Shown here: positions 21,647-41,471 of the stretch, in pieces
How the letters are laid out: the number at the start of each line of letters is the position of its first letter
How positions within the stretch are numbered: the first letter of the stretch is position 1
Assembly: GCA_964408735.1 (NCBI GenBank)
Contig: CAYPAX010000008.1
Span: 2,025 to 66,024, forward strand
Reading direction: 5' to 3'
DNA: 64,000 nt
Origin: an uncultured Rhodospirillaceae bacterium
Lineage (GTDB): Bacteria; Pseudomonadota; Alphaproteobacteria; UBA7887
Translations under genes and position numbers: made by a program
The notes under the pieces: model-generated
The model's input: the letters and a program-made list of their open reading frames with translations, nothing else
Databases searched by the model: none
Told to the model about the DNA's origin: nothing

Positions 21647-23304
21647 GCGGCGAGATCAGCACCGGCGAAGCCCTGCTGCGGCGCCTCAAGACGCTCGGCA
21701 TCGACTATCTGTTCGCCAATTCGGGCACCGATTTCCCGCCGCTGATCGAGGCGCTGGCGGGCGGCGACGCCGATGCCATGCCGCAACCCCTTGTCATGCC
21801 CCACGAGCATGCGGCAATGGGCATGGCGCACGGCTACACCCAGGCCACGGGGCGGCCCCAGGCCGTGATGGTGCACACCAATGTTGGCTTGGCCAATGCC
21901 GCCATCGGCGCGCTGAATGCGGCCTACGACCAGATCCCGATGATCCTCTGCTCGGGCCGCACCCCGGCTACCGAGCACGGTCGCCTCGGCTCGCGCAACA
22001 ACCCCATCAACTGGGGCCAGGAGATGCGCGACCAGGCGGCGTTGGTGCGCGAGGTTGTGAAGTGGGATTACGAGCTGCGCTTTCCCGAGCAGGTCTACGA
22101 CGTTCTCGATCGCGCCTGGGCCATCGCCATGTCCGCGCCGCGCGGGCCGGTCTATCTCAGCTTGCCGCGCGAGGTGCTGAGCGCACCGTGCCCGCCGCCC
22201 ACGGCCGGCCCGGCGCTGGTGCCGGCCCAGGCAGGCCCGGCGGCAGAGGATGTCGCCCGGGCGGCGGCGATATTGGCCGCGGCCGAGCGGCCGCTGATCG
22301 TCACCCAGCGTGGCGCTGGCGGGGCGGAAGGGTTCGCCACCCTGGCCCGGCTCGCCGAGCGTTGGGCCATTCCCGTCACCCAGTTCTGGCCACTGCAACT
22401 CGCCATTGCCAGCGACCATGCCATGAATGGCGGCCCCGACCCGGCGCCTTGGCTGGCCGAGGCCGACGCGGTGCTGGTCATCAATGCGCTGACGCCCTGG
22501 GCGCCGTCGCAAGCCTCGCCACCGCCGGGCTGCAAGGTCATCCATGTCGGGCCGGATCCTTTGTTCGCTCGCTATCCGATACGCGGCCACCGCGCTGACG
22601 CGACCGTGACCGGCGACGTGGCGGCCGTCCTCGCCGCCTTGGAGGCCGAGATGGGCGCACCGCACGCAGGCTGGCAGAGTGCGGCAGAGCGCTGCCGCGA
22701 TATCCGTGCGGCGGCACAATCCGAAGCCGAGGCCGGCAACGGCTCACCCATGACCAAGGCCTGGGCGGCGAAATGCGTCTCGGATCTGCTGGCAGAGAAT
22801 GACAGCGTTTTGATCACCGAGCTCGGTTGCCCCACTGCAAACATGACCCTGAGCCGTGCCGACGCCTTCCACCAGGAGCCCCATTCGGGCGGCCTCGGCT
22901 GGGGTTTTCCGGCGGCACTCGGCAGGCGTCTTGCCGAACCCGATCGCCTGGTGGTGGCGACCGTCGGCGACGGCTCCTACATCTTTGCCAATCCCGTCGC
23001 CTGCCATCAGATCGCCGAGGCGCTGGACCTGCCGATCCTGCTCGTGGTGCTCAACAACGGTGCCTGGAACGCGGTGCGCCGGGCCACGCTCGACATCTTT
23101 CCCGACGGCAACGCCGCACGCGCCAACGCCATGCCGCTGACCTCGCTGTCGCCATCGCCGGATTTCGCCAAGCTGGCCGAGGCCCACCGTGCCTGGTCGG
23201 AGGCGGTGGAGGTGGGTAGCGAGCTGCCGGCAGCCCTTGCGCGGGCGGCCGAGGTGGTGTTGAAGGAGCGTCGTCTGGCGCTGTTGGAAGTACGGGTTTC
23301 ATAG
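21643..23304 (+). CDS. Thiamine pyrophosphate-dependent enzyme (acetolactate synthase-like / IolD-like)
   Basis: 553-aa ORF with TPP-enzyme N-terminal, central and C-terminal TPP-binding domains (GDGSYIF...NNGAWNA). Start overlaps the upstream stop by 4 nt. Confidence 0.85.
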   Translation: MSGEISTGEALLRRLKTLGIDYLFANSGTDFPPLIEALAGGDADAMPQPLVMPHEHAAMGMAHGYTQATGRPQAVMVHTNVGLANAAIGALNAAYDQIPMILCSGRTPATEHGRLGSRNNPINWGQEMRDQAALVREVVKWDYELRFPEQVYDVLDRAWAIAMSAPRGPVYLSLPREVLSAPCPPPTAGPALVPAQAGPAAEDVARAAAILAAAERPLIVTQRGAGGAEGFATLARLAERWAIPVTQFWPLQLAIASDHAMNGGPDPAPWLAEADAVLVINALTPWAPSQASPPPGCKVIHVGPDPLFARYPIRGHRADATVTGDVAAVLAALEAEMGAPHAGWQSAAERCRDIRAAAQSEAEAGNGSPMTKAWAAKCVSDLLAENDSVLITELGCPTANMTLSRADAFHQEPHSGGLGWGFPAALGRRLAEPDRLVVATVGDGSYIFANPVACHQIAEALDLPILLVVLNNGAWNAVRRATLDIFPDGNAARANAMPLTSLSPSPDFAKLAEAHRAWSEAVEVGSELPAALARAAEVVLKERRLALLEVRVS

Positions 23305-23305
23305 C

Positions 23306-24772
23306 ATGAGCGAAATCGCACTGGGCGACATTCCGGCCCATTACGCCGAGGCCTTGGGCGACGACCGGGTGGCGCTGATTCACCCCGACGGCGAGCTGAG
23401 CTGGGGCGGGCTGGAGCGTGCGGCAAACCGCCGCGCTCGCCGGCTTGCCGAGCTCGGCGTTGGCGGCGACGACCTGGTCACCATCGCGCTGCCCAACGGC
23501 AACCGCTTTTTCGAGACCACTTTCGCGATCTGGAAGCTGGGCGCGACGCCGCATGTGGTGTCGTCGAAACTGCCGCCCGCAGAGTTGCGCGAGATCGTCG
23601 CCGTGGCCGAGCCGCGCCTGGTCATCGGCGTCGATGCGGACATTCTGCCCGGCACGGCGACCCTGCCCGAGGATTTCGCCGCCGACGGTCACGACGACGG
23701 GCCCATGCCGGTCAAGGTGGCGCGCTATTGGAAGGCCATGTCGAGCGGCGGCTCCACGGGGCGGCCCAAGATCATCGTCGACCACAATCCGGCGGCGATC
23801 GACCCTGAGGAGGAGGATTTCCTCGATATGCCGCGCGCGGGCTGCCTGCTCAACCCGGGCCCGCTCTACCACAATGCGCCTTTCATCATGGCCCATCGCG
23901 GCCTGTTTCGCGGCAACCGGATTGTCGGCATGCAGCGGTTCGATGCGGCGGAGTCCCTGCGCCTGATCGAGCGTCATCGCGTCGAATGGGTGATGATGGT
24001 GCCGACCATGATGCACCGCATCTGGCGCCTCGAAGCGGCCGAGCGCGAGGCTTTCGATCTATCCAGTCTGCGCATTGTCAGTCATGTCGCGGCACCCATG
24101 CCGGTCTGGCTCAAGCAGAACTGGGTAGACTGGCTCGGGCCCGATCGGGTCTGGGAGCTCTATGGCGGCACGGAAGGCACGGGTGCGACCTGGTGCAGCG
24201 GCACGGAGTGGCTGGCCCACAAGGGCACGGTGGGCAAGACCGTGCGCGGCTCGCGGGTGCGCATCCTCGACGAGGACGGCAAGGATTGCGCGCCGGGAGA
24301 GATGGGCGAGGTCTTCCTGATGCCGGAAGCCGGGCCGGCCAGCAGCTACCACTATATCGGCGCCGAGGCCAAGGTCGCGGACGGCGGCTGGGAGACCCTC
24401 GGCGATGTCGGCTGGCTCGACGAGGACGGCTACCTCTATCTCGGCGACCGCCGCGGCGACATGATCATCGCCGGCGGCGCCAACATCTACCCGGCCGAGG
24501 TGGAATCGGCGCTGGCCGAGCATCCCGGCGTCGATACGGTGGTCGCCATCGGCCTGCCGGACGAGGATATGGGCGAGGTGGTGCACGCCATCGTGCAGCC
24601 CCACGACGGCTGGCAGGACAGGCTGGACGACGCCGCGTTGGCGGAATTCGCCGAGACGCGCCTGGCGCGCTACAAGACCCCGCGCAGTTATGAATTCGTC
24701 GACTATTCGTTGCGTGATGACGCCGGCAAGGTACGCCGCTCGCAATTGCGCGCGGAGCGCGTCGCCGATTAG
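23306..24772 (+). CDS. AMP-dependent synthetase/ligase (acyl-CoA synthetase family)
   Basis: 488-aa ORF with the AMP-binding signature (MSSGGSTGRPK) and C-terminal lid. Confidence 0.85.
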   Translation: MSEIALGDIPAHYAEALGDDRVALIHPDGELSWGGLERAANRRARRLAELGVGGDDLVTIALPNGNRFFETTFAIWKLGATPHVVSSKLPPAELREIVAVAEPRLVIGVDADILPGTATLPEDFAADGHDDGPMPVKVARYWKAMSSGGSTGRPKIIVDHNPAAIDPEEEDFLDMPRAGCLLNPGPLYHNAPFIMAHRGLFRGNRIVGMQRFDAAESLRLIERHRVEWVMMVPTMMHRIWRLEAAEREAFDLSSLRIVSHVAAPMPVWLKQNWVDWLGPDRVWELYGGTEGTGATWCSGTEWLAHKGTVGKTVRGSRVRILDEDGKDCAPGEMGEVFLMPEAGPASSYHYIGAEAKVADGGWETLGDVGWLDEDGYLYLGDRRGDMIIAGGANIYPAEVESALAEHPGVDTVVAIGLPDEDMGEVVHAIVQPHDGWQDRLDDAALAEFAETRLARYKTPRSYEFVDYSLRDDAGKVRRSQLRAERVAD

Positions 24773-27127: not shown

Positions 27128-28021
27128 ATGGATCATGCCTTCGCCTTGATCGTATTTGCCCGTGTGGTCGACAGCGGCAGCTTCTCTGCTGCTGCCAGGC
27201 AACTCGGCCTCTCAAAGGGCGGTGTCAGCAAGCATGTGGGCCGGCTGGAGGAACGCTACGGCCTGCGTCTGCTCAACCGCACCACGCGCCGGCTCAGCCT
27301 TACGGAAGCGGGCCGCTCGGTCTATGAGCGCGCGGCGCGTGTGGCCGAGGAGACGGCGGCAGCGGACGCCGCGGCTTCGGCTCTCACCGAAGAGCCGCGG
27401 GGGTTGTTGCGTTTGACGCTGCCGACTTCGTTCGGTTTGCGCCGGGTCTCGCCGTTGCTGCCGGCATTCCTGGCGCAATATCCCGAGGTCAGCGTCGACG
27501 TCACGGTCAGCGACCGATTTCTCGATCTCGTCGGCGAGGGCTACGACCTGGCGATCCGTATCGGTGAGTTGCCGGACTCGACCCTGGTCGCGCGCAAGAT
27601 CGCCGAAAGCCGGGTCGTCGTGTGCGCTTCGCCCGCCTATTGGCAGGCCCACGGCCGGCCCGCACGTCCGGTCGATCTCAAGCACCATCATTGTTTGGTC
27701 TATCGCGGCGCCGCTCCGCTCGGCGAGTGGCGCTTTGCCGGCGATACCGTTGTCCGGGTCAAAGGCGCCATGATCTCGGACAATGGCGACGTCCTCATCG
27801 ATGCCGCCTGCGCCGGCCTCGGCGTTTGCTACACGCCGGGTTTCTTGGCGGACGCCGCGCTTGCCGACGGCCGGCTCGAGAGCGTGCTGGAGAATTGCGA
27901 AACAAAGCCAATTCCGATTTACGCGATGCACACCCACGGCCGCCATCCGGCCGCCAAGGTTCGCGCCTTCATCGATTATCTGAGCGTTCAGTCTCGGGCG
28001 AGCGCGGCGGCGGAAACGTAA
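27128..28021 (+). CDS. LysR family transcriptional regulator
   Basis: N-terminal HTH (FARVVDSGSFSAAARQLGLSKGGVSKHV) and LysR substrate-binding domain. Divergent from the DoxX gene. Confidence 0.9.
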   Translation: MDHAFALIVFARVVDSGSFSAAARQLGLSKGGVSKHVGRLEERYGLRLLNRTTRRLSLTEAGRSVYERAARVAEETAAADAAASALTEEPRGLLRLTLPTSFGLRRVSPLLPAFLAQYPEVSVDVTVSDRFLDLVGEGYDLAIRIGELPDSTLVARKIAESRVVVCASPAYWQAHGRPARPVDLKHHHCLVYRGAAPLGEWRFAGDTVVRVKGAMISDNGDVLIDAACAGLGVCYTPGFLADAALADGRLESVLENCETKPIPIYAMHTHGRHPAAKVRAFIDYLSVQSRASAAAET

Positions 28022-28835
28022 AGCACGGCGGCAATCAACATCACGGCGGAGAAGCCGAAGCGCATGGCGATCAGCGTCGCCAGCATGGCGCTGAGCACCG
28101 AGGCGCAGCCGTTCACGCCCCAGGCCCAGGGCACCAGCGCCGGGGTCGCCTGGCGCACTTGTGCCAGGCCGAGCGGGAAGGGCATGCCCATGAAGAAGGC
28201 CAGCGGCGCGATGACGGCGATGGCGACAGCGAATTTCGCGGCGGTGGGAACGGTTGCCAAGGCAGCGAAGACCTCTGGCAGCAGCCAGGGATAGGAGAGC
28301 GACAGAATGGCGATGGCGGCGACCGCAAGGGGGATGGCGAAGCGCTGCGAGACGGCACTGCCCAGGCCGGAGAAGACCAGGAAGCCGGCGAGCGCCGCCG
28401 CCACAGCATAGACCGGGTGGCTGAGGAACAGCACCAGCGTCTGGATCACGGCGATCTCGATGAAGAGATATAGCCGGCGCCGAAGAAGAACGGCACCACC
28501 AGTGCGACATACATCGCTGGCAGGGCGGCCAGCTGCCAGGGATTCCAGAGCACCGCCTTGGCGTTGAAGGGAATGGCCTGGGCGGCGAGGAAGGCGAGCG
28601 GGGCGGTAATCGCGAACAACAACGCCGTGCCTGCGAAGCCCGCCGTGGCGTGGCGGTGCAACCAGCCTTGGGTCAGGGCGATGACACTGCCGCTGGCGCC
28701 GAAGCCGAGCAGGGCGATGCTGATCGCCATGAAGGCGAAGTGATGCCACTGCACGATGGCGAACAGGCGCACCAGCAGCACTTCGTAGGCGAGCACCGCG
28801 GCGGAGACCAGCGCCAGCGCCAGGTTCGCGGTCAT
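27988..28835 (-). pseudogene. Polytopic membrane protein gene interrupted by a frameshift near 28450-28475
   Basis: Two overlapping minus-strand ORFs (28446..29051 and 27988..28749) are both hydrophobic and membrane-like. One continues where the other stops (..FFFGAGY | LFIEIAVIQTLVLF..). Start ATG at 28833-28835 forms an ATGA overlap with the pcm stop. Confidence 0.5.
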
Positions 28836-29560
28836 TCGCGCGGGCGGGTCAGCGGCACGAAGCGCACCGGCAGCAGCTGACGCGTGGTGACGGCGCCTGC
28901 CGCATCCTTCTCCACGAGTGTCAGGAATTGCGGCCCGTAGACGTCGCCGACCGGGATCACCATGCGCCCGCCTGGCTTGAGCTGCTGCACCAGCGGCGGC
29001 GGCACGTGGCCCGCCGCGGCGGTGACGGTGATGCCGTCGAAGGGCCCGCACTCGGGCCAGCCCATGTAGCCGTCGCCGATGCGCGCGCGCACGTTGTCGT
29101 AGCCGAGCTCTGCCAGGCGCGCGGCGGCGCTCTCGCCGAGCGGCGCGATGATCTCCATGCTGCAGACTTCCGTTACCAGCGGCGCCAGCACCGCCGCCTG
29201 GTAGCCCGAGCCGGTGCCGATCTCGAGCACTCTGGCCTCCGGCCCGACACCCAGCAGCTCGGTCATCAGGGCGACGATGAAGGGCTGCGAGATGGTCTGG
29301 CCGTGGCCGATCGGCAGCGGCGTGTCGGCATAGGCGTCACGGCGGTAGGCCTCGGGCACGAAAAGGTGCCGCGGCACGGTTTTCATCACGGCCAGCACTT
29401 CCGGCGAGATCAGCTCGCCGGACGGCGCAAGAGAGTCCGCATGGCGCTCGATGACGCGCACCATCAGCGCCCGCGCCTCCGCCCAGCCATCGTCGGCAAT
29501 GGCTGGTGTGGTCCACAGGGCGGCAAAGCAGAGCAGTGCTATGAGCGGTGGCTGTCTCAT
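28832..29560 (-). CDS. pcm: Protein-L-isoaspartate O-methyltransferase, secreted form
   Basis: Internal start MRQPPLIALLCFAALW (signal peptide), then the PIMT core (VLEIGTGSGYQAAVLA, SAM motif I). The upstream 330 aa of the track ORF are junk opposite a + strand SDR gene. Confidence 0.85.
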   Translation of the reverse strand: MRQPPLIALLCFAALWTTPAIADDGWAEARALMVRVIERHADSLAPSGELISPEVLAVMKTVPRHLFVPEAYRRDAYADTPLPIGHGQTISQPFIVALMTELLGVGPEARVLEIGTGSGYQAAVLAPLVTEVCSMEIIAPLGESAAARLAELGYDNVRARIGDGYMGWPECGPFDGITVTAAAGHVPPPLVQQLKPGGRMVIPVGDVYGPQFLTLVEKDAAGAVTTRQLLPVRFVPLTRPRE

Positions 29561-29632
29561 GATCGTTTCCAGCTGTGGGCCATGATGGTACGCCTTGTCA
29601 TAGCCCGCGTCATCGCCAAGGAGGGAAACGAC

Positions 29633-30412
29633 ATGGATCTGGGGATTGCCGGCCGCAAGGCCATTGTCTGTGCATCCAGCAAGGGGCTGGGGCGCGCCTG
29701 TGCCCAGTCCCTGGCGCGCGAGGGGGTCGATCTGGTGGTCAATGGGCGCGGGCCCGAGGCGCTGGAGCAAACCGCCGCGGATATTCGCGCCGAGAGCGGC
29801 GTGGCGGTGACCGCTGTGGCCTGCGATGCCACGACGCCCGAGGGCCAGCAGGCCCTGCTCGCGGCCTGTCCCGAGCCGGATATTCTGGTCAACAATGCGG
29901 GCGGGCCGCCGCCCGGCGATTTTCGCGACTGGGATCGGGAGGACTGGCAGGAGGCGCTGGTGGCCAACATGCTCGCGCCCATCGAGCTCATGAAGGCGAC
30001 CGTCGACGGCATGATGGCGCGCGGTTTCGGGCGCATCGTCAACATCACCTCGGCCTCGACCAAATGCCCGATCCCCGACCTCGGCATGTCGAACGGCGCG
30101 CGCACCGGGCTGGCCGGCTTCGTGGCCGGGCTGGCGCGCCAGACCGTGCGCCGCAACGTCACCATCAACTCGCTTTTGCCCGGCGCCTTCGTTACCGACC
30201 GCATGCGCCAGCACATGACCTATACCGGCGCCCAGCAGGGCATGGACTTCGAGACCTTCGCCGCGGCGGCGGCGGAACAGAACCCGGCCGGCCGGCTCGG
30301 TGACCCGGCGGAATTCGGCGACGCCTGCGCCTTTCTCTGTGCCGCGCAGTCGGGCTATGTCACCGGCCAGCACTACCTGATGGACGGCGGCAACTTCCGC
30401 GGCACCTTTTGA
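29633..30412 (+). CDS. SDR family oxidoreductase
   Basis: ATG at 29633 with AAGGAGGG Shine-Dalgarno. Rossmann motif (GRKAIVCASSKGLGRA). Catalytic S...YxxxK-like core. Confidence 0.85.
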   Translation: MDLGIAGRKAIVCASSKGLGRACAQSLAREGVDLVVNGRGPEALEQTAADIRAESGVAVTAVACDATTPEGQQALLAACPEPDILVNNAGGPPPGDFRDWDREDWQEALVANMLAPIELMKATVDGMMARGFGRIVNITSASTKCPIPDLGMSNGARTGLAGFVAGLARQTVRRNVTINSLLPGAFVTDRMRQHMTYTGAQQGMDFETFAAAAAEQNPAGRLGDPAEFGDACAFLCAAQSGYVTGQHYLMDGGNFRGTF

Positions 30413-30474
30413 CGCCGGCGGGATAACCTCGGTTAAGGTGGTGCGCACAGGCTGGCGGCATCCTCGGGGGTAAC

Positions 30475-31269
30475 ATGGCAGAACGCAGGACGGCACTGGT
30501 GACGGGGGCGGCGCGGGGCATCGGCCGCGCCATCGCGACACGATTGGTGCAGCGCGGCGACCGTGTCGCGCTTATCGACATCGCCCCCGATGTCGCGGCG
30601 ACCGCCGACGCTATCGGTGCGGCCGTTGCCGTGCAGGCGGACGTCAGCGACGCCGACGCGGTGGCCGAGGCGGTTCGAGAGGTCGGTCCCGTCGAGATAT
30701 TGGTCAACAATGCCGGGCTGGTGAAGAACATCGCGCCCGTCGGCCGCATGACCAGCGAGGCCTGGGAGACGGAGCTGGCGGTCAATCTCGGCGGGCCGTT
30801 CAACCTCATCCGGGCGGTCATCGGACCGATGGTCGAGGCGGGCTGGGGGCGCATCGTCAACATATCGTCCGTGGCAGCGCGCGGGGGCTTGCATTACCAG
30901 GCCGGCTACGGCGCCTCGAAGGCCGGGCTGCTCAGCCTCACCCACACCGTGACCCTGGAATATGCCCGCCACGGCATCACCTGCAACGCGATCCTCCCGG
31001 GCGTGATCGAGACCGAGAACGTCAAGGCCATGCCGCGGGCCATACGGGATTCGGTCATCGCCAGCGCGCCGGCGCGGCGCCTCGGCAAGGTCGAGGAGGT
31101 GGCGTATCTCGTCGCCTTCCTGGCCTCGGAAGAGGCCGGCTACATCAGCGGCGCGGAGATCGATATCGACGGCGGCACGCGTCTGAGTGCCATCACGCTC
31201 GGCAGCCGCAGCGAGTTGAAGGAGCGCGCCGAAGCCCTTGCCAGGGCACTCGAGGAGAGCGAGTCATGA
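30475..31269 (+). CDS. SDR family oxidoreductase
   Basis: TGAARGIGRA Rossmann motif. YGASKAG catalytic Tyr/Lys. Confidence 0.85.
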   Translation: MAERRTALVTGAARGIGRAIATRLVQRGDRVALIDIAPDVAATADAIGAAVAVQADVSDADAVAEAVREVGPVEILVNNAGLVKNIAPVGRMTSEAWETELAVNLGGPFNLIRAVIGPMVEAGWGRIVNISSVAARGGLHYQAGYGASKAGLLSLTHTVTLEYARHGITCNAILPGVIETENVKAMPRAIRDSVIASAPARRLGKVEEVAYLVAFLASEEAGYISGAEIDIDGGTRLSAITLGSRSELKERAEALARALEESES

Positions 31270-32849
31270 GCGAACAAACCAGCTATTCCGGCATTCCGCT
31301 CGAGCCTTTCTATGCGCCCGAGGGCGAGAGCGAGGCCCCCGGCGCCTATCCCTACACCCGCGGCAAGCGCCTGCCGCGCCCGGGCCAGTCGTGGATATTG
31401 CGCGAGCTTTCCGGCGAGGGCACGGCCGAGCGCTCCAATGCCCAGTTCAAGTCGCTGATCGCCAAGGGCCAGCAGGGCCTAGACGTCATCGGCGATTCGC
31501 CGACCATGGCCATGCTCGATGCGGACCATCCCCACGCCGTGCACGCGGTGGGCACGCAAGGCGTCTCGCTGTGCTGCCGCGCCGACTACGAGGCGCTCTA
31601 CCGCGACCTGCCGTTGGATAGCTTGAGTTTTTCGCAATCCCTGCCCTCGGTGGCGGCGATCGCCGGATTGTATCTGGTCGCCACGGCGCGCGGCGTGCCG
31701 GCGGAGAAGCTGCGCGGCTCTGCCATTCAGGTCGCCTTGTACGAGGACGATTGCTGCTATTCGCGCCACCTGCCGCTGGCCTTGCGCACGCGCCTGGCCA
31801 CGGACTCGATCGCCTTTGCCACGGCGAAGATGCCGAAATTCCACGCCCTGCTGGAGGACACCTATTATTTCAGCGAGACAGGCCTCGAGTCGGTCGAGGA
31901 AATGGCGTTGGGCTTCGTCGAGCTGCGCTTCTACATCCGCGAGCTGATCAAGCGCGGCATCGACGTCGACGCCTTCGCCCCGCGCATCGGCATATTGCTG
32001 ACCTGCCGCATGGACCTGTTCGAGGAGATCGCCAAGATCCGCGCCTCACGCCGGCTCTATGCGCGCATGATGAAAGACGAGTTCGGCGCCCGCGATGAAC
32101 GCTCCATGGCGCTGACCGTGACCGCGCATACCTCGGGGCTCACCATGACGGCGCAGCAGCCGGTCAACAATGTCGCGCGCGGCGGCATGCAGGCGCTGGC
32201 CATGGCGCTCGCCGGCGTCCAGGCGATGGAGATCTCGACCTTCGACGAGGCCTACCGCACGCCGAGCGAGGAGGCCCATCTGGTGGGCCTGCGCACCCAG
32301 CAGATCGTGCAGCTGGAGACCAACGTCACCAAGGTGGCGGACCCCCTGGGCGGCTCCTACTATGTCGAGGCGCTGACCGACGAGATGGAGCGGCGGATTG
32401 CCGCCGAGGTCGCGCGTATCGAGGCCGCGGGCGATATCGCCGAGCTTGCCGAACAGGGCTATTTCCGGCACATCTTCGCCACTGCCATGGAGCGCCTGGG
32501 CCGCGATCTCGCCGACGGCACCCTGCAGCGCGTCGGCGACACTTGCCATACCGTGCCCGAGGACGAGGACCGCATGCTCAAGGACGCCGCCGAGGTGAAG
32601 ATCGAGCCCTATCGCGAGCAGATCGATCGCATCCGCGACTTCAAGGGCAGCCGCGACCAGGAAAGCGTCAAGCAGGCGCTCGGTGCCCTGCACGATGCCG
32701 CGCGTGAGCCCGACCGCGACCTCATGGCGCCCTATGTCGCCGCACTTGCTGCCGATGCAACGGTTGGCGAGACCGCCGGCGTGCTGCGCCAGGCCTACGG
32801 CCAGCCCTACGATCCCCTGGCGCGGCTGCCGTCGCCGCTCGATGGCTGA
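31266..32849 (+). CDS. Acyl-CoA mutase family large (catalytic, TIM-barrel) subunit lacking a fused B12 domain (Icm/Hcm-like)
   Basis: N-terminal PGAYPYTRGKRLPRPGQSWILRELSG matches the methylmalonyl-CoA mutase family signature. 527 aa. ATGA overlap with the upstream SDR stop. Confidence 0.75.
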   Translation: MSEQTSYSGIPLEPFYAPEGESEAPGAYPYTRGKRLPRPGQSWILRELSGEGTAERSNAQFKSLIAKGQQGLDVIGDSPTMAMLDADHPHAVHAVGTQGVSLCCRADYEALYRDLPLDSLSFSQSLPSVAAIAGLYLVATARGVPAEKLRGSAIQVALYEDDCCYSRHLPLALRTRLATDSIAFATAKMPKFHALLEDTYYFSETGLESVEEMALGFVELRFYIRELIKRGIDVDAFAPRIGILLTCRMDLFEEIAKIRASRRLYARMMKDEFGARDERSMALTVTAHTSGLTMTAQQPVNNVARGGMQALAMALAGVQAMEISTFDEAYRTPSEEAHLVGLRTQQIVQLETNVTKVADPLGGSYYVEALTDEMERRIAAEVARIEAAGDIAELAEQGYFRHIFATAMERLGRDLADGTLQRVGDTCHTVPEDEDRMLKDAAEVKIEPYREQIDRIRDFKGSRDQESVKQALGALHDAAREPDRDLMAPYVAALAADATVGETAGVLRQAYGQPYDPLARLPSPLDG

Positions 32850-32850
32850 G

Positions 32851-33261
32851 ATGGCGCGCCCGATCAAGATCCTCGTCGCCATCCTCGGCACCGACCAGCA
32901 CGAGGTCGGCGCCCTGGCGGTCTCGGCCTTGCTGCGCGATGCCGGCATGGAGGTGATCTACAGCGGCCGCTTCAACCTGCCCGCCGGAGTCGTCACCAGC
33001 GCCGTGCAGGAGGATGTGGACGTGATTGGCATCAGCGCCCATTCCTGGGAATATCTGCATTACCTGGACGATATCTTCGCCGGCCTGGCGGAGGCGGGGG
33101 CGGACATTCCGGTGGTCGTCGGCGGCTCGGTGGTGACGCCGGGCGACAAGGCCAAGGTGCTGGCGCAAGGGGTTGCGGCGGCGTTCGGCCCCACCGACAG
33201 CGCGGCGGAGATCGTTGCCGAGATCCGCCGGCTCGCGGCGGCGGAGGAGGAGATTCAATGA
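32851..33261 (+). CDS. Cobalamin (B12)-binding small subunit of the acyl-CoA mutase
   Basis: 136 aa. DxHxxG-type motif (GTDQHEVG) and Rossmann-like B12-binding fold. Starts 1 nt after the large-subunit stop. Confidence 0.8.
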   Translation: MARPIKILVAILGTDQHEVGALAVSALLRDAGMEVIYSGRFNLPAGVVTSAVQEDVDVIGISAHSWEYLHYLDDIFAGLAEAGADIPVVVGGSVVTPGDKAKVLAQGVAAAFGPTDSAAEIVAEIRRLAAAEEEIQ

Positions 33262-33632
33262 CCGACAATGAGGTAGCCGCGCGCCTGGGTCACCTGCCGG
33301 CGCTGGTCAACGGCAATATGGCGCTGGTGCGGCGCGGGCGGACCCTCAACGAGACCATTCTGGTCGGGGCGGGGGATATCCCGGTGTATGTCACGGTGAG
33401 CGGCGGCGAGGTCGCCGAGGTGGCGCGCGGGCCGGTGCTGATGCGCTCGTGGCGCTTCGCCATCCGGGCAAGTGCCGAGGCCTGGGGGCGCTTCTGGCAG
33501 CCCATGCCGGAGCCCGGCTTCCACGACATCCTTGCCATGACACGGTTCGGCCATGCCACCATCGAGGGCGATTTGCAGCCGCTGATGGCGCATCTGCGCT
33601 ACGTCAAGGAGTTGCTGGAGGCGCCGCGATGA
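33258..33632 (+). CDS. SCP2 (sterol carrier protein-2)-like small protein
   Basis: 124 aa. C-terminal ...TRFGHATIEGDLQPLMAHLRYVKELL resembles the SCP2 motif ...GKLKIEGDMGLAMKL... ATGA overlaps on both sides. Confidence 0.4.
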   Translation: MTDNEVAARLGHLPALVNGNMALVRRGRTLNETILVGAGDIPVYVTVSGGEVAEVARGPVLMRSWRFAIRASAEAWGRFWQPMPEPGFHDILAMTRFGHATIEGDLQPLMAHLRYVKELLEAPR

Positions 33633-34477
33633 GCCTGGCATTCGAGCCCATCACGGGGCGCTACGCCACGCTGAGCCTGGCGGGCAGGCCCTGCCGCATC
33701 TATCTGGAAGAGGCGGGCAGCGGCATCCCCTTGCTCTGCCTGCACACCGCCGGCGCCGATAGCCGCCAGTATCGCCACTTGATGCTCGACGAGGCCGTGA
33801 CGGATCGCTTTCGGGTGATCGCCTTCGATCTTCCCTGGCACGGCAAGTCCCTGCCGCCGCCCGGCTACGAGGACGAGGAATATCGCCTGACCACCGCGTC
33901 CTATGTCGAAGCCATCCTCGCCGTTGCCGTCGGGCTCGACTTGCAGGACCCGGTGCTCATGGGCTGCTCCATGGGCGGACGCATCGTGCTGGAGATTGCG
34001 GCCCGCCACGCGGAACGCTTCCGCGCCCTGATCGGCGTCGAGTGCGCCGACCACCAGACGCCCTGGTACGACACCGACTGGCTGCACCGCGGCGACGTGC
34101 ACGGCGGCGAGGTCTGCGCCGCCATGATCTCAGGCCTGGTCGCGCCCCAGTCGCCCGCCCAATACCGCTGGGAGACCCTCTGGGGCTACCTGCAAAGCGG
34201 CCCCGGCATCTTCAAGGGCGACCTGCATTTCTACCGCGAGGATTCCGACTTCCGCGACCGCGCCGCCCTGATCGACACAGCGGTTTGCCCACTCTATCTG
34301 CTGACCGGCGAATACGACTTCTCCTGCACCCCCGAGGACACCCTGCGCACCGCTGCCGCCATCCCCGGTGCCAAGGCAACCATCATGAGGGAACTCGGCC
34401 ATTTCCCCATGAGCGAGAACCCGGCGCGCTTCCACGAATATCTGATGCCGGTGCTGGCGGAGATTTGCGCGAAATAG
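33629..34477 (+). CDS. Alpha/beta hydrolase fold protein
   Basis: Start MSLAFEP at 33629. Nucleophile elbow GCSMGG. 282 aa. Confidence 0.8.
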   Translation: MSLAFEPITGRYATLSLAGRPCRIYLEEAGSGIPLLCLHTAGADSRQYRHLMLDEAVTDRFRVIAFDLPWHGKSLPPPGYEDEEYRLTTASYVEAILAVAVGLDLQDPVLMGCSMGGRIVLEIAARHAERFRALIGVECADHQTPWYDTDWLHRGDVHGGEVCAAMISGLVAPQSPAQYRWETLWGYLQSGPGIFKGDLHFYREDSDFRDRAALIDTAVCPLYLLTGEYDFSCTPEDTLRTAAAIPGAKATIMRELGHFPMSENPARFHEYLMPVLAEICAK

Positions 34478-34490
34478 CCTGCGCCGCCGG

Positions 34491-35581
34491 AATGGGGTCC
34501 GCCGCCGAATTGGGGTCACGCCGAATTGGGGTCAAGTCTTTCATTTTAGCGTTGATGATTCTATGATTGTCGACGGCCAAATCATAACAACCGGACCGAA
34601 CGCCATGGCACGTCCCTTGCGGCTCGACTTTCCCGGCGCGCTTCACCACGTGACGGCGCGGGGCAATGCGCGCCAGGACATCTTCTTCACGGCCGATGAC
34701 AGGCAGCATTTTCTCGACAATTTGGGGAAGGTCTGTGAACGACTCGGTTGGATATGCTATGCTTACTGTATGCTCGATAACCACTATCATATTCTGATAG
34801 AGACGCCGACCGGCGGCCTCGCCCGCGGCATGCGGCAAGTCAACGGTGTCTACACGCAATACGTCAATCGCGTGCATGATCGCGTCGGGCACCTCTTTCA
34901 GGGGCGCTACGCCTCGATCCTGGTTCACAAGGAGAGCCATCTGCTCGAGCTCTGCCGCTACATCGTGCTCAACCCGGTCAGGGCCGGCCTGGCCGACGCC
35001 GCAGGCGACCATCTGTGGTCGAGCTACCGCGCCACCGCCGGAGCGTCGCGCGGGCCGGCGTGGCTGCATAGCGATGCAGTATTGAGCCTGTTCGGCGGCG
35101 CGCCGCGCACCGCCAGGGCGCGGTATCGGCGATTCGTGGCGGAAGGGGCGGCAAGGCGGCCCTGGGACAATCTGGTCGATCAGGTCTTTCTCGGGCCGGC
35201 CGGCTTCGCTGCCGAGATGAAGGCGCGCGTCGGCGATACCGATGCCCTGACCGAGGTGCCGCAAGCGCAAAGGCGGGCGCCGGCGCATGGCCTCGACTGG
35301 TATGCCGCCGAGACGCCGGACCGCAACGCCGCCATGCTCGCGGCCTGGCAGTCGGGCGATCACACGCAGCAGGCCATAGCGCGGCATTTCGGCATTCATT
35401 ACACCACCGTCTCGCGCCTTCTCAAGCGCCTGGGGGCATAGCTGTCCGCGGGCCCGTCTTGGGGTCAGCGGGTTTTGGGGTCAGGTCTTTCCCTTTAGCA
35501 TATTATGTTTTTCTAAAATGCTAAAATGAAAGACTTGACCCCAATCTGGATGAAATGAAAGACTTGACCCCAATCTGGATG
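34491..35581 (+). mobile_element. REP-associated tyrosine transposase (RAYT) locus with flanking REP-like repeats
   Basis: IS200/Y1-type transposase gene flanked by GGGGTC-containing repeats. Tandem AAT(T)GGGGTC units at 34491-34535. TTGGGGTCAAGTCTTTCATTTTAGC at 34526-34550. A variant copy at 35474-35499. Two tandem inverted copies GAAATGAAAGACTTGACCCCAATCTGGATG at 35522-35581. Confidence 0.7.
34605..35441 (+). CDS. REP-associated tyrosine transposase (IS200-like Y1 transposase with C-terminal HTH)
   Basis: MARPLRLDFPGALHHVTARGNARQDIFF...NHYHILIET carries the HuH motif and a catalytic Tyr region. C-terminal HTH (IARHFGIHYTTVSRLLKR). The track ORF starts 14 codons earlier, at 34563. Confidence 0.8.
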   Translation: MARPLRLDFPGALHHVTARGNARQDIFFTADDRQHFLDNLGKVCERLGWICYAYCMLDNHYHILIETPTGGLARGMRQVNGVYTQYVNRVHDRVGHLFQGRYASILVHKESHLLELCRYIVLNPVRAGLADAAGDHLWSSYRATAGASRGPAWLHSDAVLSLFGGAPRTARARYRRFVAEGAARRPWDNLVDQVFLGPAGFAAEMKARVGDTDALTEVPQAQRRAPAHGLDWYAAETPDRNAAMLAAWQSGDHTQQAIARHFGIHYTTVSRLLKRLGA

Positions 35582-37576: not shown

Positions 37577-38245
37577 ATGAGCCATACCTACGACTATCCC
37601 CATCCCGCCGTGACGACCGATATCGTCGTGTTCACGGTCGACGAAGGTGTGCTGAAGCTGCTGGGGATCCGGCGCAAGGCGGCGCCGTATCAGGGGCGCT
37701 GGGCGCTGCCGGGCGGCTTTGTCGAGATCGACGAGTCCATTGATGCCTGTGCCGCGCGGGAGCTGGCGGAGGAGACCGGGCTCGCCGGCATCTATCTCGA
37801 GCAGCTCTACACCTTCGGCGCGCCGGATCGCGATCCGCGGGAGAGGGTGATCAGCGTCGCCTATTACGCGCTTGCGCCGTTGCACGGTCTCGCGCTCAGG
37901 GCCGGCTCGGACGCCGCGGCTGCCGCCTGGCACGACATCGATGCCTTGCCGGAGCTGGCTTTCGACCACCGGGATATCGTCGCCATGGCGCGAGAGAGGG
38001 TGCGGGCGAAGATCGAGTATTCCGACCTCGGGCTGATGTTCATGCCGGAGAGCTTCACTTTGTCGGACGTGCAGGGGCTTTACGAGACCGTCTCCGGGCA
38101 GCCGCGCGACAAGCGGAATTTCCGCAAGTGGCTATTGTCTCTTGACCTGATCGAGGAAACGGGCGAGATGCGGGCCGAGGGCGCCCATCGTCCCGCCAAG
38201 CTCTACCGGCGGACGAGCCCGAACGAGCTGACGATCATCCGCTGA
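37577..38245 (+). CDS. NrtR-like regulator: Nudix domain fused to C-terminal winged-helix DNA-binding domain
   Basis: Intact Nudix box GGFVEIDESIDACAARELAEETGL. C-terminal ...LSDVQGLYETVSGQPRDKRNFRKWLLSLDLIEETGEMRAEGAHRPAKLYRR is typical of the NrtR winged-helix domain. Confidence 0.7.
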   Translation: MSHTYDYPHPAVTTDIVVFTVDEGVLKLLGIRRKAAPYQGRWALPGGFVEIDESIDACAARELAEETGLAGIYLEQLYTFGAPDRDPRERVISVAYYALAPLHGLALRAGSDAAAAAWHDIDALPELAFDHRDIVAMARERVRAKIEYSDLGLMFMPESFTLSDVQGLYETVSGQPRDKRNFRKWLLSLDLIEETGEMRAEGAHRPAKLYRRTSPNELTIIR

Positions 38246-38254
38246 GGCGACAGC

Positions 38255-38929
38255 ATGCAAATCTCCGATGTCGAACAGGCCTTGCGCACGGCGGGACTGG
38301 CGCCGCGTGGTGCGTTTCACCCCGAGCCCGCCGACGGCGTGCCGGATATCGCACCGGGGCGGCCGACCGGCACCCTGGTGCTGGCGGGCAATGCGGGGCC
38401 CGAGATGTGGCGCGCCTTCGTGGCGGCGACGGGGGCGCCGGCCGGCGGCCTCGACGGCTGGTCCGACGAAGTCTTGAGCCGGGCCGCCGAGCAGTGTGGC
38501 GCCATGGCCGTCTTCCCCTTCAGCAAGCCGCCGCTGCCGTTTCAGCGCTGGGCCTGCCGTGCAGGACCCTGCTTCAGCTCGCCCCTCGGTATCCTGATTC
38601 ATGCCGATCACGGCCTTTGGCACGCCTTTCGCGGCGGCCTGGCATTTGCCGAGCGCCTCGATCTGCCGCCGCCGGACGAGCGCCCCAACCCCTGCGAGGC
38701 CTGCCCGCAGCGGTTCTGCCTGACGACCTGCCCGGTGTCGGCCTTCAGCGAGGACGGCTATGACGTTCCCGCTTGCGCCGTCCATGTCGCGGAAAACGGG
38801 GACGGCGACTGCCTTTCGCTGGGCTGCCGGGCGCGGCGTGCCTGTCCGATCGGGCGTGGGGCACGCTACGAGCCGGCCCAGGCACAGTTTCACATGGAGT
38901 CGTTCCTGCGCGCCCGCCTGCCCGCCTGA
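38255..38929 (+). CDS. Ferredoxin-like protein with two [4Fe-4S]-type Cys clusters
   Basis: CEACPQRFCLTTCP and CAVHVAENGDGDCLSLGCRARRACP motifs in the C-terminal half. Starts 9 nt after the NrtR-like gene. Confidence 0.5.
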   Translation: MQISDVEQALRTAGLAPRGAFHPEPADGVPDIAPGRPTGTLVLAGNAGPEMWRAFVAATGAPAGGLDGWSDEVLSRAAEQCGAMAVFPFSKPPLPFQRWACRAGPCFSSPLGILIHADHGLWHAFRGGLAFAERLDLPPPDERPNPCEACPQRFCLTTCPVSAFSEDGYDVPACAVHVAENGDGDCLSLGCRARRACPIGRGARYEPAQAQFHMESFLRARLPA

Positions 38930-38981: not shown

Positions 38982-39692
38982 ATGGCGGACACTGGGGTTC
39001 GAGAATTCTCACGATATCGACCTCCCCTGCCAACCAAGCCATGGGTGACGCACGTGTCTGTCGCGGAAATTTACGATGCTGTTCTGGATTACGATGATGA
39101 GGGGGTGCCTGAGCTGGTAAACGCGGAGCTCGCAGCCGGCACCGACATAAAGGTCATTCTCGACGACGGCATGATAGCCGCGCTCGATGATATCGGGGCC
39201 CGCTTCAGCGAGGGCACGCTGTTCGTGCCCGAGATGCTGATGGCGGCCCAGGCGGTGCAGGCGGGCATGGATATCCTGCGCCCGCTGCTGGCCGAGACCG
39301 GCGCCAAGCCCGTCGGCACCGTGGTCATCGGCACGGTCAAGGGCGACCTGCACGACATCGGCAAGAACCTGGTGGCGATGCTGCTGGAAGGCGCCGGTTT
39401 CAAGGTCGTGGACCTGGGCGTCGATGTCGATGCCGAGACCTTCATCTCCTCGGCCCAGGAGAACGAAGCCGAGCTGGTGGCGATCTCGGGCCTCCTGACC
39501 ACCTCCATGCCGGAAATCGAGAGCGCCGTGGCGACCATCGCCGAGGCCAACAAGGCGCGCAACCTCAACGTCAAGGTCATGGTCGGCGGGCCGCCTCTGA
39601 ACACCGAATTCGCCACGCGCATCGGCGCCGACGGCTATGGCGAGAGCGCACCCGCCGCGGTCGACAGAGCCCGCAGCCTGGTCGCGGTATAA
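38982..39692 (+). CDS. Cobalamin-binding corrinoid protein (methyltransferase cognate corrinoid protein, MtaC/MtbC-like)
   Basis: B12-binding cap domain plus Rossmann domain with DxHxxG (GDLHDIGKN). Start uncertain: ATG at 38982, or in-frame GTG at about 39047. Confidence 0.75.
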   Translation: MADTGVREFSRYRPPLPTKPWVTHVSVAEIYDAVLDYDDEGVPELVNAELAAGTDIKVILDDGMIAALDDIGARFSEGTLFVPEMLMAAQAVQAGMDILRPLLAETGAKPVGTVVIGTVKGDLHDIGKNLVAMLLEGAGFKVVDLGVDVDAETFISSAQENEAELVAISGLLTTSMPEIESAVATIAEANKARNLNVKVMVGGPPLNTEFATRIGADGYGESAPAAVDRARSLVAV

Positions 39693-39705
39693 GGGGACAC
39701 GTGCG

Positions 39706-40863
39706 ATGAGCTGGAGCCACCGCGACCGCGTCCTTGCCGCGATCAACCACGAGGAGCCCGACCGGGTTCCCATCGATCTCGCCGCCGCCGGCGCCACGGG
39801 CATCACCATCGATGCCTATGACGCCCTCAAGGCGCATCTCGGCCTGGAGCACGAGAGCGTGATGATGTCGAAGCTCAACCAGCTCGCCGCGCCGGACGAG
39901 ACGGTGCTCGAGCGCTTCGGCGTCGATACCCGCCCGGTCATGGCGCACGGGCGCCGCGGCGGCAAAGGCCACTGGGTCGACGAGCTGACCTATATCGACC
40001 ATTTCGGCGTCACCTTCAAAGGCACCGTCGGCACGGCGGACAAGCATTTCCTCTACAAGGACGGCCCGCTCTGCGGCGGCAAGCTGACCATCGACCGCAT
40101 CGACGAGATGGAATGGCCGGACCCCGAAGATCCGCTGATGTCCGCGGGCATCAAGGAGCGGGTCGCCGCCTACAAGGCGCAGGGCGACTACTGCCTGGTC
40201 TTCAACGTGCCCGATCAGGTCATCCATCGCGCCTACGGCCTGCGCGGCATGGAGGCCTTCCTGATGGATCTGTTCAAGGCGCCGGAAGCGGCGTGTTATC
40301 TCATGGACCGCCTGGCCGACTACAACATCAAGGCCTCGGAGAAGATGATCCGCGAGGCCGGGCCGGAGAACATCGACGTGATCTTCTTCGGCGAGGATCT
40401 CGGCACCCAGAACGGCTGCATGTTCGACCCCGACGCGACCTATGGCCGCATGATCAAGCCGCGCCACGAGCGCATCATCCAGACGCTGAAGGGCCTGACG
40501 GGCGGCAAGTCGCTGTTCCACTGCTGCGGCTCCGCCTATCTCTTCATCGAGCATCTGATCGATATCGGCGTCGATATCCTCAATCCCGTCCAGGTGGCGG
40601 CGAAGAACATGGAGGTCGAGCGCCTCAAGGGCGAGTTCGGCACCCGCATGGCTTTCTGGGGCGGCATCAACACGCAAGCGACCCTGCCCCAGGGCACGCC
40701 CGAGGAGGTCATCGCCGAGACCCGCCACGTCATCGATGTCCTCGGCAAGGGCGGCGGCTACGTGCTCAACGCGGTGCACAACATCCAGCCCGAGGTGCCG
40801 CCGGAAAACGTCGTCGCCATGTACGACACCGGGCTCGCGCACCGCTACCTGGTGCCGGCCTGA
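39706..40863 (+). CDS. Uroporphyrinogen decarboxylase (URO-D) family methyltransferase (MtaA/MtbA-like methylcobamide methyltransferase)
   Basis: 385 aa. N-terminus MSWSHRDRVLAAINHEEPDRVPIDL. URO-D/MtaA fold. AAGGGGA Shine-Dalgarno. Confidence 0.8.
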   Translation: MSWSHRDRVLAAINHEEPDRVPIDLAAAGATGITIDAYDALKAHLGLEHESVMMSKLNQLAAPDETVLERFGVDTRPVMAHGRRGGKGHWVDELTYIDHFGVTFKGTVGTADKHFLYKDGPLCGGKLTIDRIDEMEWPDPEDPLMSAGIKERVAAYKAQGDYCLVFNVPDQVIHRAYGLRGMEAFLMDLFKAPEAACYLMDRLADYNIKASEKMIREAGPENIDVIFFGEDLGTQNGCMFDPDATYGRMIKPRHERIIQTLKGLTGGKSLFHCCGSAYLFIEHLIDIGVDILNPVQVAAKNMEVERLKGEFGTRMAFWGGINTQATLPQGTPEEVIAETRHVIDVLGKGGGYVLNAVHNIQPEVPPENVVAMYDTGLAHRYLVPA

Positions 40864-40864
40864 C

Positions 40865-41461: not shown

Positions 41462-41471
41462 GGTGCCGACC

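Follow-up and report, generated by a model that had tools for sequence, protein, structure and literature searches.

To our knowledge, about seven substrate specificities have been described among the B12-dependent acyl-CoA mutases (MCM, i.e. methylmalonyl-CoA mutase, ICM/IcmF, ECM, HCM, RCM, PCM and a hexylmalonyl type), and all of these keep a Tyr-His pair in the active site. Here we describe a putative mutase of this superfamily that keeps the Tyr and has lost the His. Its two subunits, called MutL and MutS below, are encoded in a six-gene operon at positions 29633-34477 of a 64,000-nt stretch of DNA (the window) from an uncultured Rhodospirillaceae bacterium (assembly GCA_964408735.1, contig CAYPAX010000008.1, positions 2,025 to 66,024). 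The other four genes encode two members of the short-chain dehydrogenase/reductase (SDR) family, SDR1 and SDR2, a protein of 124 aa (U124) and an alpha/beta hydrolase (ABH). The core of the operon, SDR2-MutL-MutS, is a cassette conserved across many phyla.

The best-matching mutase of solved structure is HcmAB of Aquincola tertiaricarbonis (4r3u), which resembles the pair described here in its split subunits, in its non-carboxylated substrate (predicted for ours) and in having an aliphatic residue in place of Tyr89 of MCM (Ile90 in HcmA, Leu48 in MutL). HCM operons carry a dedicated acyl-CoA ligase and a MeaB-type chaperone, as do part of the loci related to ours, but neither is in the present operon. 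MutL is without the N-terminal extension of about 45 residues found in HcmA, its conserved partner is an SDR, and the regulator is of the TetR type whereas that of HCM is of the GntR type. MCM (1req, 2xij) has the same Pfam domain pair, and its Glu370, Tyr243, YTRG, FDEA and DxHxxG are kept here; in contrast, its Tyr89, Arg207, His244, Gln330 and Asn366 are all replaced, and the B12 domain is unfused here. IcmA/IcmB and IcmF (4xc6) likewise act on a substrate without carboxylate, and IcmA/IcmB are also split, but the Phe/Gln pair of ICM is absent from MutL and the similarity is much weaker.

At the gene level the closest parallel is the anaerobic acetone pathway of Desulfococcus biacutus and Desulfosarcina cetonica, which comprises a thiamine pyrophosphate (TPP) enzyme, an RcmAB-like mutase, a 3-hydroxybutyryl-CoA dehydrogenase annotated as FabG, and MeaB (PMC7888143, PMC7176365, PMC8084838). 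In these clusters a protein annotated as 3-oxoacyl-ACP reductase oxidises the mutase product, and hydratases, ligases and thiolases are encoded nearby (PMC7888143, PMC8084838, PMC7176365). The RcmAB systems, found also in Desulfotomaculum spp. and Kyrpidia tusciae, share with our locus a split B12 mutase beside an SDR and a hydrophobic residue at the position of HcmA residue 117 (Ile75 in MutL). Their hallmark, a TPP enzyme of about 685 aa, was not identified in the loci studied here; the window does encode a 553-aa TPP protein 8 kb upstream of the operon, but this belongs to the uncharacterised PRK08327 family and to a separate gene cluster.

Gene layout of the operon

ORF and Pfam analysis found six plus-strand genes at the places, and with the identities, that the original prediction had given them:

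29633-30412, + strand: SDR1, 259 aa, PF13561/PF00106, with AAGGAGG 8 nt 5' of the ATG
30475-31269, + strand: SDR2, 264 aa, a classical SDR, adh_short Pfam
31266-32849, + strand: MutL, mutase large subunit, 527 aa, PF01642 (E 5.9e-126, full-length)
32851-33261, + strand: MutS, cobalamin-binding subunit, 136 aa, PF02310 (E 2e-18)
33258-33632, + strand: U124, 124 aa, SCP2 fold by structure model
33629-34477, + strand: ABH, alpha/beta hydrolase, 282 aa, PF00561/PF12697

Each of the six ORFs has a coding-type composition, with in-frame GC at third codon positions of 0.87-0.88. ATGA overlaps join SDR2 to MutL (at 31266), MutS to U124 (33258) and U124 to ABH (33629), while a 1-nt gap separates MutL from the MutS start at 32851; public gene callers choose an alternative MutS ATG at 32842, giving 139 aa and an 8-nt overlap with MutL. 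Translational coupling, which had been proposed for all six genes, therefore holds for five, SDR1 being uncoupled from the remaining genes and separated from SDR2 by 62 nt. The identical MutL protein occurs on at least 24 public marine metagenome contigs, with the same neighbour genes where these are shown, which excludes an assembly artefact. The nearest genome records are uncultured marine Rhodospirillaceae metagenome-assembled genomes (MAGs). A promoter and terminator scan of the operon gave nothing above shuffle expectation and no convincing internal terminator, no cobalamin riboswitch or other Rfam family was found at 26-42 kb of the window, and tblastn of the 64-kb window bore out the earlier remark that it encodes no MeaB-like chaperone. 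We take the locus for a genuine operon, presumably transcribed as one unit, although its three parts make up a mosaic specific to this lineage.

MutL belongs to a discrete clade of split mutases

The PF01642 match of MutL spans profile positions 2-512 of 512. MutL scores above the cut-off of TIGR00641 (373 bits against 304), and falls far below those of the NCBIfam MCM equivalog PRK09426 (317 against 876 bits) and of the NCBIfam IcmF model (139 against 1500 bits). Its best PDB match is HcmA (E 2.4e-85, 35.5% identity), ranked ahead of the human, mycobacterial and propionibacterial MCMs and of IcmF (122 bits). The PRK09426 score, the absence of Tyr89 and Arg207 and the low identity to canonical mutases (35-41%) all agree with the earlier view that this is no housekeeping methylmalonyl-CoA mutase. 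Tight clustering with true MCM alpha chains, or a B12 domain lost by artefact, was looked for and is not seen: the Icm/Hcm-type architecture that had been recognised, an MCM-family large subunit without a fused B12 domain plus a separate B12 subunit, is split in all related loci and on at least 24 independent contigs, and the artefact was rejected on these grounds.

In a library of 1.84 billion representatives at 50% identity, the clade comes down to one full-length representative (56% identity, 625 bits). The nearest matches outside the clade reach 350-385 bits at 36-41% identity, while clade members are at least 52% identical. MutL belongs to a discrete and uncharacterised clade, of which we found no description in the literature. 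Rokubacteria, deltaproteobacterial lineages, Alphaproteobacteria and Bacillota are among the sources of the 120 closest homologues (56-92% identity), which bear generic names only. Family-specific peptide patterns place the clade in at least 183 GTDB species, spread over sulfate reducers, syntrophs, Rokubacteria/Methylomirabilota, Binatia, Chloroflexi and alphaproteobacteria of oxygen-minimum zones, with Desulfobacteraceae MAGs and Desulfotruncus alcoholivorax among the carriers. Five motifs are invariant in the clade: WIxRELSGEG, GxDVIGDxPT, EDTY[YF][IF]SE, HTSG and E[IV]SxFDEA. In their active-site motifs the 120 homologues agree with one another and depart from all mutases characterised so far.

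A rough, distance-based neighbour-joining tree of the 50%-identity representatives (no bootstrap) puts the clade on a long branch, inside a large unnamed radiation that is without His244 and often has His at the Gln330 position; this radiation lies apart from the canonical Tyr-His/Gln/Asn group, which holds HcmA and the representatives with an MCM-type signature. The metagenomic members of this radiation, proteins with the MM_CoA_mutase domain (P0246-P0390), have Asp, Asn, Val, Gly or Tyr at the His244 position, and many have His at that of Gln330. None of them is named, and the clade studied here is one branch among them.

For the small subunit, MutS scores above the cut-offs of PF02310 and TIGR00640 (82.8 bits for the latter), with HcmB as its second-best match among solved structures. 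On proper alignment the 136-aa ORF does contain the cobalamin-ligand motif DxHxxG expected of it: residues D14-Q-H16-E-V-G19 (DQHEVG) line up with the DGHDRG of HcmB and of 2yxb, a protein from Aeropyrum, and the motif is kept in 49 of 50 MutS orthologues.

A non-canonical active site

Residue equivalences were taken from a profile-profile alignment against HcmA and canonical representatives (probability 100%), with columns counted over 121 sequences:

Tyr89 of MCM, Ile90 of HcmA: Leu48 (121/121)
Ser114/115: Asp73 (121/121)
Asp117 of HcmA: Ile75 (121/121)
Phe117/118: Gly76
Tyr243: Tyr200, invariant
His244 (HcmA His245): Tyr or Phe201 (62/59 of 121)
His328: Thr/Ala286
Gln330 (HcmA Gln332): His288 (121/121)
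Asn366 (HcmA Asn368): Ser324 (121/121)
Glu370: Glu328, kept

The catalytic Tyr243-His244 pair is thus broken, the Tyr being kept and the His replaced, and the canonical signature is absent. In acyl-CoA mutases His244 polarises the migrating thioester carbonyl. Its replacement lowers the case for canonical membership and not that for working as a mutase. Among the residues that contact adenosine, Glu370 is kept while Gln330 and Asn366 are changed, both changes being invariant in the clade, and the YTRG motif is conserved.

The pocket positions previously singled out as diagnostic of substrate were inspected, and they show none of the three signatures, neither Tyr/Arg (MCM) nor Phe/Gln (ICM) nor Ile/Asp/Gln (HCM). 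Both carboxylate binders of MCM, Tyr89 and Arg207, are absent. So is the Phe/Gln pair of ICM, with Leu48 and no Gln at the 207 position. Of the HCM pocket Ile90/Asp117/Gln208, the first residue is conservatively replaced by Leu48, the second has become Ile75 and the third has no equivalent; relative to HcmA the site differs further at His245 (Tyr/Phe201), Gln332 (His288), Asn368 (Ser324) and Phe118 (Gly76).

A conserved cassette within a local mosaic

Gene neighbourhoods were compared in 80 loci, one representative genome per GTDB species from the 183 matching species, by tblastn and ORF clustering; neighbour counts are over 78 loci. MutS follows MutL in nearly all 80. In 38 of 78 loci an SDR2 orthologue (53-87% identical) is encoded no more than 5 kb from MutL, mostly directly upstream. 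Other frequent partners are a crotonase of the uncharacterised PRK12478 equivalog (enoyl-CoA hydratase, ECH; 28 loci), an AMP-forming acyl-CoA synthetase (ACS; 25 loci), a TetR regulator (about 15) and MeaB, which is adjacent in nine. A 3-hydroxyacyl-CoA dehydrogenase (3HCDH), an SCPx-type thiolase and an acetoacetate-decarboxylase-like protein occur in 4-5 loci each, and a ketopantoate-reductase-like 2-oxoacid reductase together with a class-V aminotransferase in four marine alphaproteobacterial loci. In the deltaproteobacterial loci L019, L024, L029 and L045 the order is TetR-ECH-SDR-MutL-MutS, followed by ACS or 3HCDH. In Desulfotruncus alcoholivorax DSM 16058, the one carrier in culture, the locus (L072) starts with TetR and runs on with MutL-MutS-ECH-ACS-SDR and then an apparent acyl-CoA dehydrogenase, 3HCDH and thiolases.

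SDR1, U124 and ABH were found in none of the 80 related mutase loci. Alignment by blastn with L010, the locus of a close relative (MutL 94% identical; 86-89% nucleotide identity), shows window positions 29613-30418 to be an indel comprising exactly SDR1 and its ribosome-binding site, and everything after window position 33279, that is U124 and ABH, to be another. The full six-gene order occurs in this strain and on one other contig only (U124 84% identical), from which the PCMT and transposase genes that flank the operon in the window (listed below) are absent. U124-ABH is an independently mobile module that has been appended here, and SDR1 has been inserted upstream. The six-gene arrangement is therefore a recent local mosaic, less significant than the core cassette, and the original prediction's reading of the six genes as one conserved pathway does not stand: SDR2-MutL-MutS alone recurs in the 80 loci, U124-ABH lives without the mutase, and both SDR1 and U124-ABH are indels.

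A further protein of about 220 aa with a Cys motif (PKPCGSG...YCAHCY) lies beside the mutase in L028, L032, L052, L070 and L075, mostly just after MutS. No Pfam or NCBIfam model matches this protein, which may be an accessory factor of the mutase clade.

The two dehydrogenase-family proteins differ in character. SDR2 has the motifs of a classical SDR, TGxxxGIG (T10GAARGIG), N78NAG and Y145GASK (Y145xxxK149), and an Asp (Asp35) after beta-2, as is typical of NAD-dependent SDRs. Its closest PDB entries are the acetoacetyl-CoA reductases 4k6c and 3vzp and the (3R)-hydroxyacyl-CoA dehydrogenase 2et6 of yeast MFE-2; its TIGR01829 score of 207 bits is below the cut-off. SDR2 is predicted to be an NAD-dependent (R)-3-hydroxyacyl-CoA dehydrogenase/3-oxoacyl-CoA reductase. 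SDR1 shares about 70% identity (E 3e-104) with SDRs of Burkholderia that were solved by structural genomics and have no assigned function (5vps/5idx/5va8). It departs from the classical SDR pattern in having S153xxxR157 in place of the catalytic YxxxK, and it is an atypical SDR-family protein, lineage-specific here.

U124 and ABH form a separable module

U124 has no Pfam match up to E=10, PF02036 included, and no NCBIfam match at E <= 0.01. Its AlphaFold model (AF2, 36 homologues) has a pLDDT of 94.2 and a pTM of 0.86, and in a Foldseek search of the PDB all 13 matches at E <= 0.001 have the SCP2 fold (best E 5e-6), among them 1wfr, 2cx7, UbiJ-SCP2 6h6o and AF1534 3bn8, with Thermus TT1886 and SCP2 represented. 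Superposition gives TM-scores of 0.6-0.72 (2cx7 0.72) with Foldseek probability 1.0 at 13-17% identity. Its family counts about 179 'hypothetical' proteins, 59-93% identical, although one UniRef entry is named 'SCP-2 sterol transfer family protein'. The earlier label 'SCP2-like' is thus upheld by the modelled fold and not by sequence profiles: to judge from the model, U124 is an SCP2-fold protein, SCP2-like at the fold level only. Known SCP2 domains are fused to a thiolase, dehydrogenase or sulfatase, whereas U124 is unfused and paired with an alpha/beta hydrolase.

In ABH, a nucleophile elbow of sequence GCSMG lies at residue 112; only weak similarity (E ~1e-12) links the protein to esterase 4uhc and to the acyl-homoserine lactone (AHL) lactonase AidH, 4g5x. 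Its NCBIfam matches (PcaD, MenH and others) are all below their cut-offs. It is an alpha/beta-fold serine hydrolase and a candidate esterase, lactonase or thioesterase.

The two genes travel together. In all four mutase-less contexts inspected, U124 is followed by an ABH orthologue: a metagenome contig with a Thalassobaculum-type protein, a Rokubacteria MAG and two other metagenome contigs. By this comparison U124-ABH is no inherent part of the mutase pathway. Lipids and acyl-CoAs are ligands of SCP2 proteins, and the constant pairing of ABH with a protein of that fold suggests that its substrate is a hydrophobic ester or thioester; from the coupling of the module to the mutase genes in this lineage it would seem to have been recruited functionally, e.g. 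for the release or supply of an acid. As to what else surrounds the pair, at 6001-11121 of L092 it is coupled translationally to genes of the hydantoinase A/B family, which includes acetone carboxylase and oxoprolinase, and on two further contigs it precedes a class II aldolase.

Proposed function

Membership of the adenosylcobalamin-dependent acyl-CoA mutase superfamily, an intact cobalamin ligand, a strongly conserved and distinct pocket and neighbours of the CoA-thioester type can be read from the sequences. We propose that MutL and MutS would form a heterodimeric adenosylcobalamin-dependent acyl-CoA carbon-skeleton mutase, in which MutS would ligate the cobalt via His16, and which would reversibly move the thioester carbonyl of a non-carboxylated acyl-CoA; with neither Tyr89 nor Arg207 present, the substrate should lack a carboxylate. 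The most probable reaction would be from a 2-hydroxy(-2-alkyl)acyl-CoA to a 3-hydroxyacyl-CoA, which the PhaB-like, NAD-type SDR2 would oxidise to a 3-oxoacyl-CoA for thiolysis, much as 2-hydroxyisobutyryl-CoA mutase and a FabG-like dehydrogenase work together in sulfate reducers that degrade acetone. Perhaps the invariant His288 or Asp73 takes over the polar role of the lost His244, although this is speculative, and the small Gly76 with the hydrophobic Leu48 and Ile75 may fit a substituent larger than methyl. U124-ABH may serve to supply a hydrophobic ester or thioester, or to set one free. MeaB, the acyl-CoA ligase and the hydratase, which accompany the cassette in other genomes, would have to sit elsewhere in this one.

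Isomerisation of a 2-hydroxy(-2-alkyl)acyl-CoA to a 3-hydroxyacyl-CoA, coupled to oxidation by SDR2, is the assignment we favour, tentatively and at somewhat less than an even chance, by analogy with the systems above. The four loci with a 2-oxoacid reductase and an aminotransferase favour a 2-hydroxyacyl-CoA isomerase, since these enzymes would supply 2-hydroxy acids. Among the substrates named in the original prediction, a 2-hydroxyisobutyryl-like compound fits best, though the pocket is not of the HCM-type Ile/Asp/Gln.

Several points weigh against this assignment. The hydroxyacyl-CoA substrate is drawn from analogy and gene context, and alkyl-branched substrates would suit the ECH and ACS partners just as well. 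The catalytic His244, kept in every characterised acyl-CoA mutase, is absent, so that the chemistry may differ beyond what we propose. With Ile in place of the hydroxyl-binding Asp117 of HcmA, and with Gln208 missing, HCM-type binding cannot be assumed. The counterpart of Arg207/Gln208 is itself ambiguous, three aligners placing it at Asp162, at residue 164 (Gly/Ser/Cys) or at Tyr165, never at an Arg or Gln. The structure model of MutL is of moderate confidence (pLDDT 75.6). Finally, identity of the clade with the RCM type is made unlikely, but indirectly, RCM being set apart by description and not by sequence alignment.

A broader version, which we consider possible but rather unlikely, is a mutase of new specificity, acting on a general 2-hydroxyacyl-CoA or an amino-substituted acyl-CoA by a radical 1,2-shift that would use His288 and Asp73 without His244; the clade would then be the first tractable member of the His244-less radiation. 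Candidate reactions on general 2-hydroxyacyl-CoAs are lactyl-CoA to 3-hydroxypropionyl-CoA and 2-hydroxybutyryl-CoA to 3-hydroxyisobutyryl-CoA.

Alternative explanations

All six genes might instead serve a single pathway whose substrate is a hydrophobic acyl-CoA with an alkyl branch, a terpenoid or steroid side chain for instance. In it the mutase would act like ICM or PCM on a compound without a hydroxyl group, U124 would be the lipid carrier, and the hydrolase and SDRs would act before or after. The hydrophobic and enlarged pocket (Leu48, Ile75 and Gly76 for Phe), the confirmed SCP2 fold, the translational coupling of five genes and the presence of 2et6 among the SDR2 matches all speak for such a pathway, as does the fact that SCP2 domains accompany (3R)-hydroxyacyl-CoA dehydrogenase in eukaryotic MFE-2 and branched-chain thiolase in SCPx. 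We nevertheless regard it as unlikely: U124-ABH and SDR1 are missing from all 80 loci, including the one with a 94%-identical MutL, U124-ABH occurs on its own elsewhere, SDR1 has neither the catalytic Tyr nor the Lys, and the conserved partner, a PhaB-like dehydrogenase, needs a 3-hydroxy/3-oxo substrate. Of the two side chains that had been suggested, we found nothing bearing on either, and there are no steroid or terpenoid genes nearby.

A second explanation takes its cue from charge. Invariant Asp73, Glu47, Glu51, Glu/Asp161-Asp162, Glu197-Asp198 and Glu322 replace neutral residues of canonical mutases, and could bind an acyl-CoA with a cationic or strongly polar group, the clade then isomerising e.g. 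2-amino- to 3-aminoacyl-CoA. It fits this explanation that hhalign puts Asp162 at the Gln208/Arg207 position and that a class-V aminotransferase is adjacent in four loci. However, these acidic residues are known from alignment, which does not establish that they line the pocket, and the commonest partners (SDR, ECH, ACS) fit hydroxy/enoyl chemistry better. We know of no aminoacyl-CoA mutase in the acyl-CoA mutase family, and consider this alternative distinctly improbable.

Equally improbable is the idea that the clade is simply the known RCM type, i.e. the (R)-specific 2-hydroxyisobutyryl-CoA mutase of Kyrpidia tusciae (RcmAB) and of the D. biacutus acetone pathway, so that its function would be known already. 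In Weichler's account of 2015, RcmA reportedly differs from HcmA chiefly at residue 117, where Val replaces Asp117. Ile75 is similar to that Val, but the clade differs from HcmA at nearly every active-site position, His244 included. The partners of the clade (FabG/PhaB-like SDR, MeaB, ECH, ACS, thiolases) do match those of the acetone clusters (PMC7888143, PMC8084838), and clade members occur in Desulfobacteraceae MAGs and in Desulfotruncus alcoholivorax. On the other hand, the large subunit of D. cetonica is 64.7 kDa (PMC7888143) and the one described here about 58-59 kDa. With the D. alcoholivorax enzyme as query, its 120 nearest relatives include no named acetone degrader, most of these matches being nameless, and no 685-aa TPP enzyme was identified in the loci, though the large neighbouring ORFs were not annotated.

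It is very improbable that MutL is a paralogue without catalysis or without mutase function, comparable to the MutA beta chain, or that it is a housekeeping MCM split by artefact: despite the change of His244 to Tyr/Phe and of Gln330 and Asn366, the motifs of the active site do not vary among 121 sequences from many phyla, DxHxxG is kept in 49/50 orthologues, Glu328 (the Glu370 equivalent) and YTRG are conserved and MeaB is adjacent in nine loci, while the split architecture in all loci and the score far below the MCM equivalog cut-off tell against a divided MCM.

Other features of the window

Outside the operon, the following features were noted:

20651-24772, + strand: coupled cluster of a GFO/IDH/MocA oxidoreductase, the 553-aa TPP-requiring PRK08327 protein (661 bits) and a BaiB/FadD4-like acyl-CoA ligase
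27988-28835, - strand: two small hydrophobic ORFs (153 and 129 aa), remnants of one 774-aa membrane protein gene
28832-29560, - strand: PCMT-type methyltransferase, its start 72 nt from that of SDR1
34563-35441, + strand: IS200-like Y1 transposase domain protein with C-terminal helix-turn-helix, 292 aa, directly after the operon
37577-38245: NUDIX/NrtR-type regulator, preceding the corrinoid system
38255-38929: Cys-rich 224-aa protein, preceding the corrinoid system
39045-42608, + strand: corrinoid protein (B12-binding_2 and B12-binding, 215 aa), two URO-D/MtaA-like methyltransferases (385 and 378 aa) and a DUF1638 protein

The set at 39045-42608, a second B12-dependent system 4.5 kb downstream of the operon, looks like a corrinoid-dependent methyl-transfer or demethylation system. 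The 774-aa membrane protein gene is intact in L010, and about 1.46 kb of it is missing from the window. The related six-gene contig has no transposase in this place, which fits local rearrangements.

The TPP enzyme and acyl-CoA ligase (21643-24772) are attractive as part of the mutase pathway because of 2-hydroxyacyl-CoA lyase chemistry, and such a link is conceivable. A TPP enzyme also lies about 6 kb upstream of the mutase in L007, an 83%-identical relative. We regard their membership of the pathway as unproven: they form a separate plus-strand cluster with the GFO/IDH/MocA oxidoreductase, seven mixed-strand genes (Pirin, GST, DoxX, LysR, two small ORFs and PCMT) stand between them and the operon, and the ligase shares no more than 24-27% identity with the ACS families found beside the mutase elsewhere.

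Significance

There is demand in biotechnology for mutases of this type, both to produce 2-hydroxyisobutyrate and for the synthetic lactyl-CoA mutase of PMC11599936. The feature of interest in this locus is the conserved SDR-MutL-MutS cassette with its non-canonical catalytic site, not the six-gene arrangement, and many such divergent clades exist. It raises a mechanistic question, namely how a rearrangement would be catalysed without His244. The invariant non-canonical active site, taken together with the conserved context of dehydrogenase, hydratase and ligase, points to an undescribed catabolic route for a branched or hydroxylated acid in anoxic and marine habitats.

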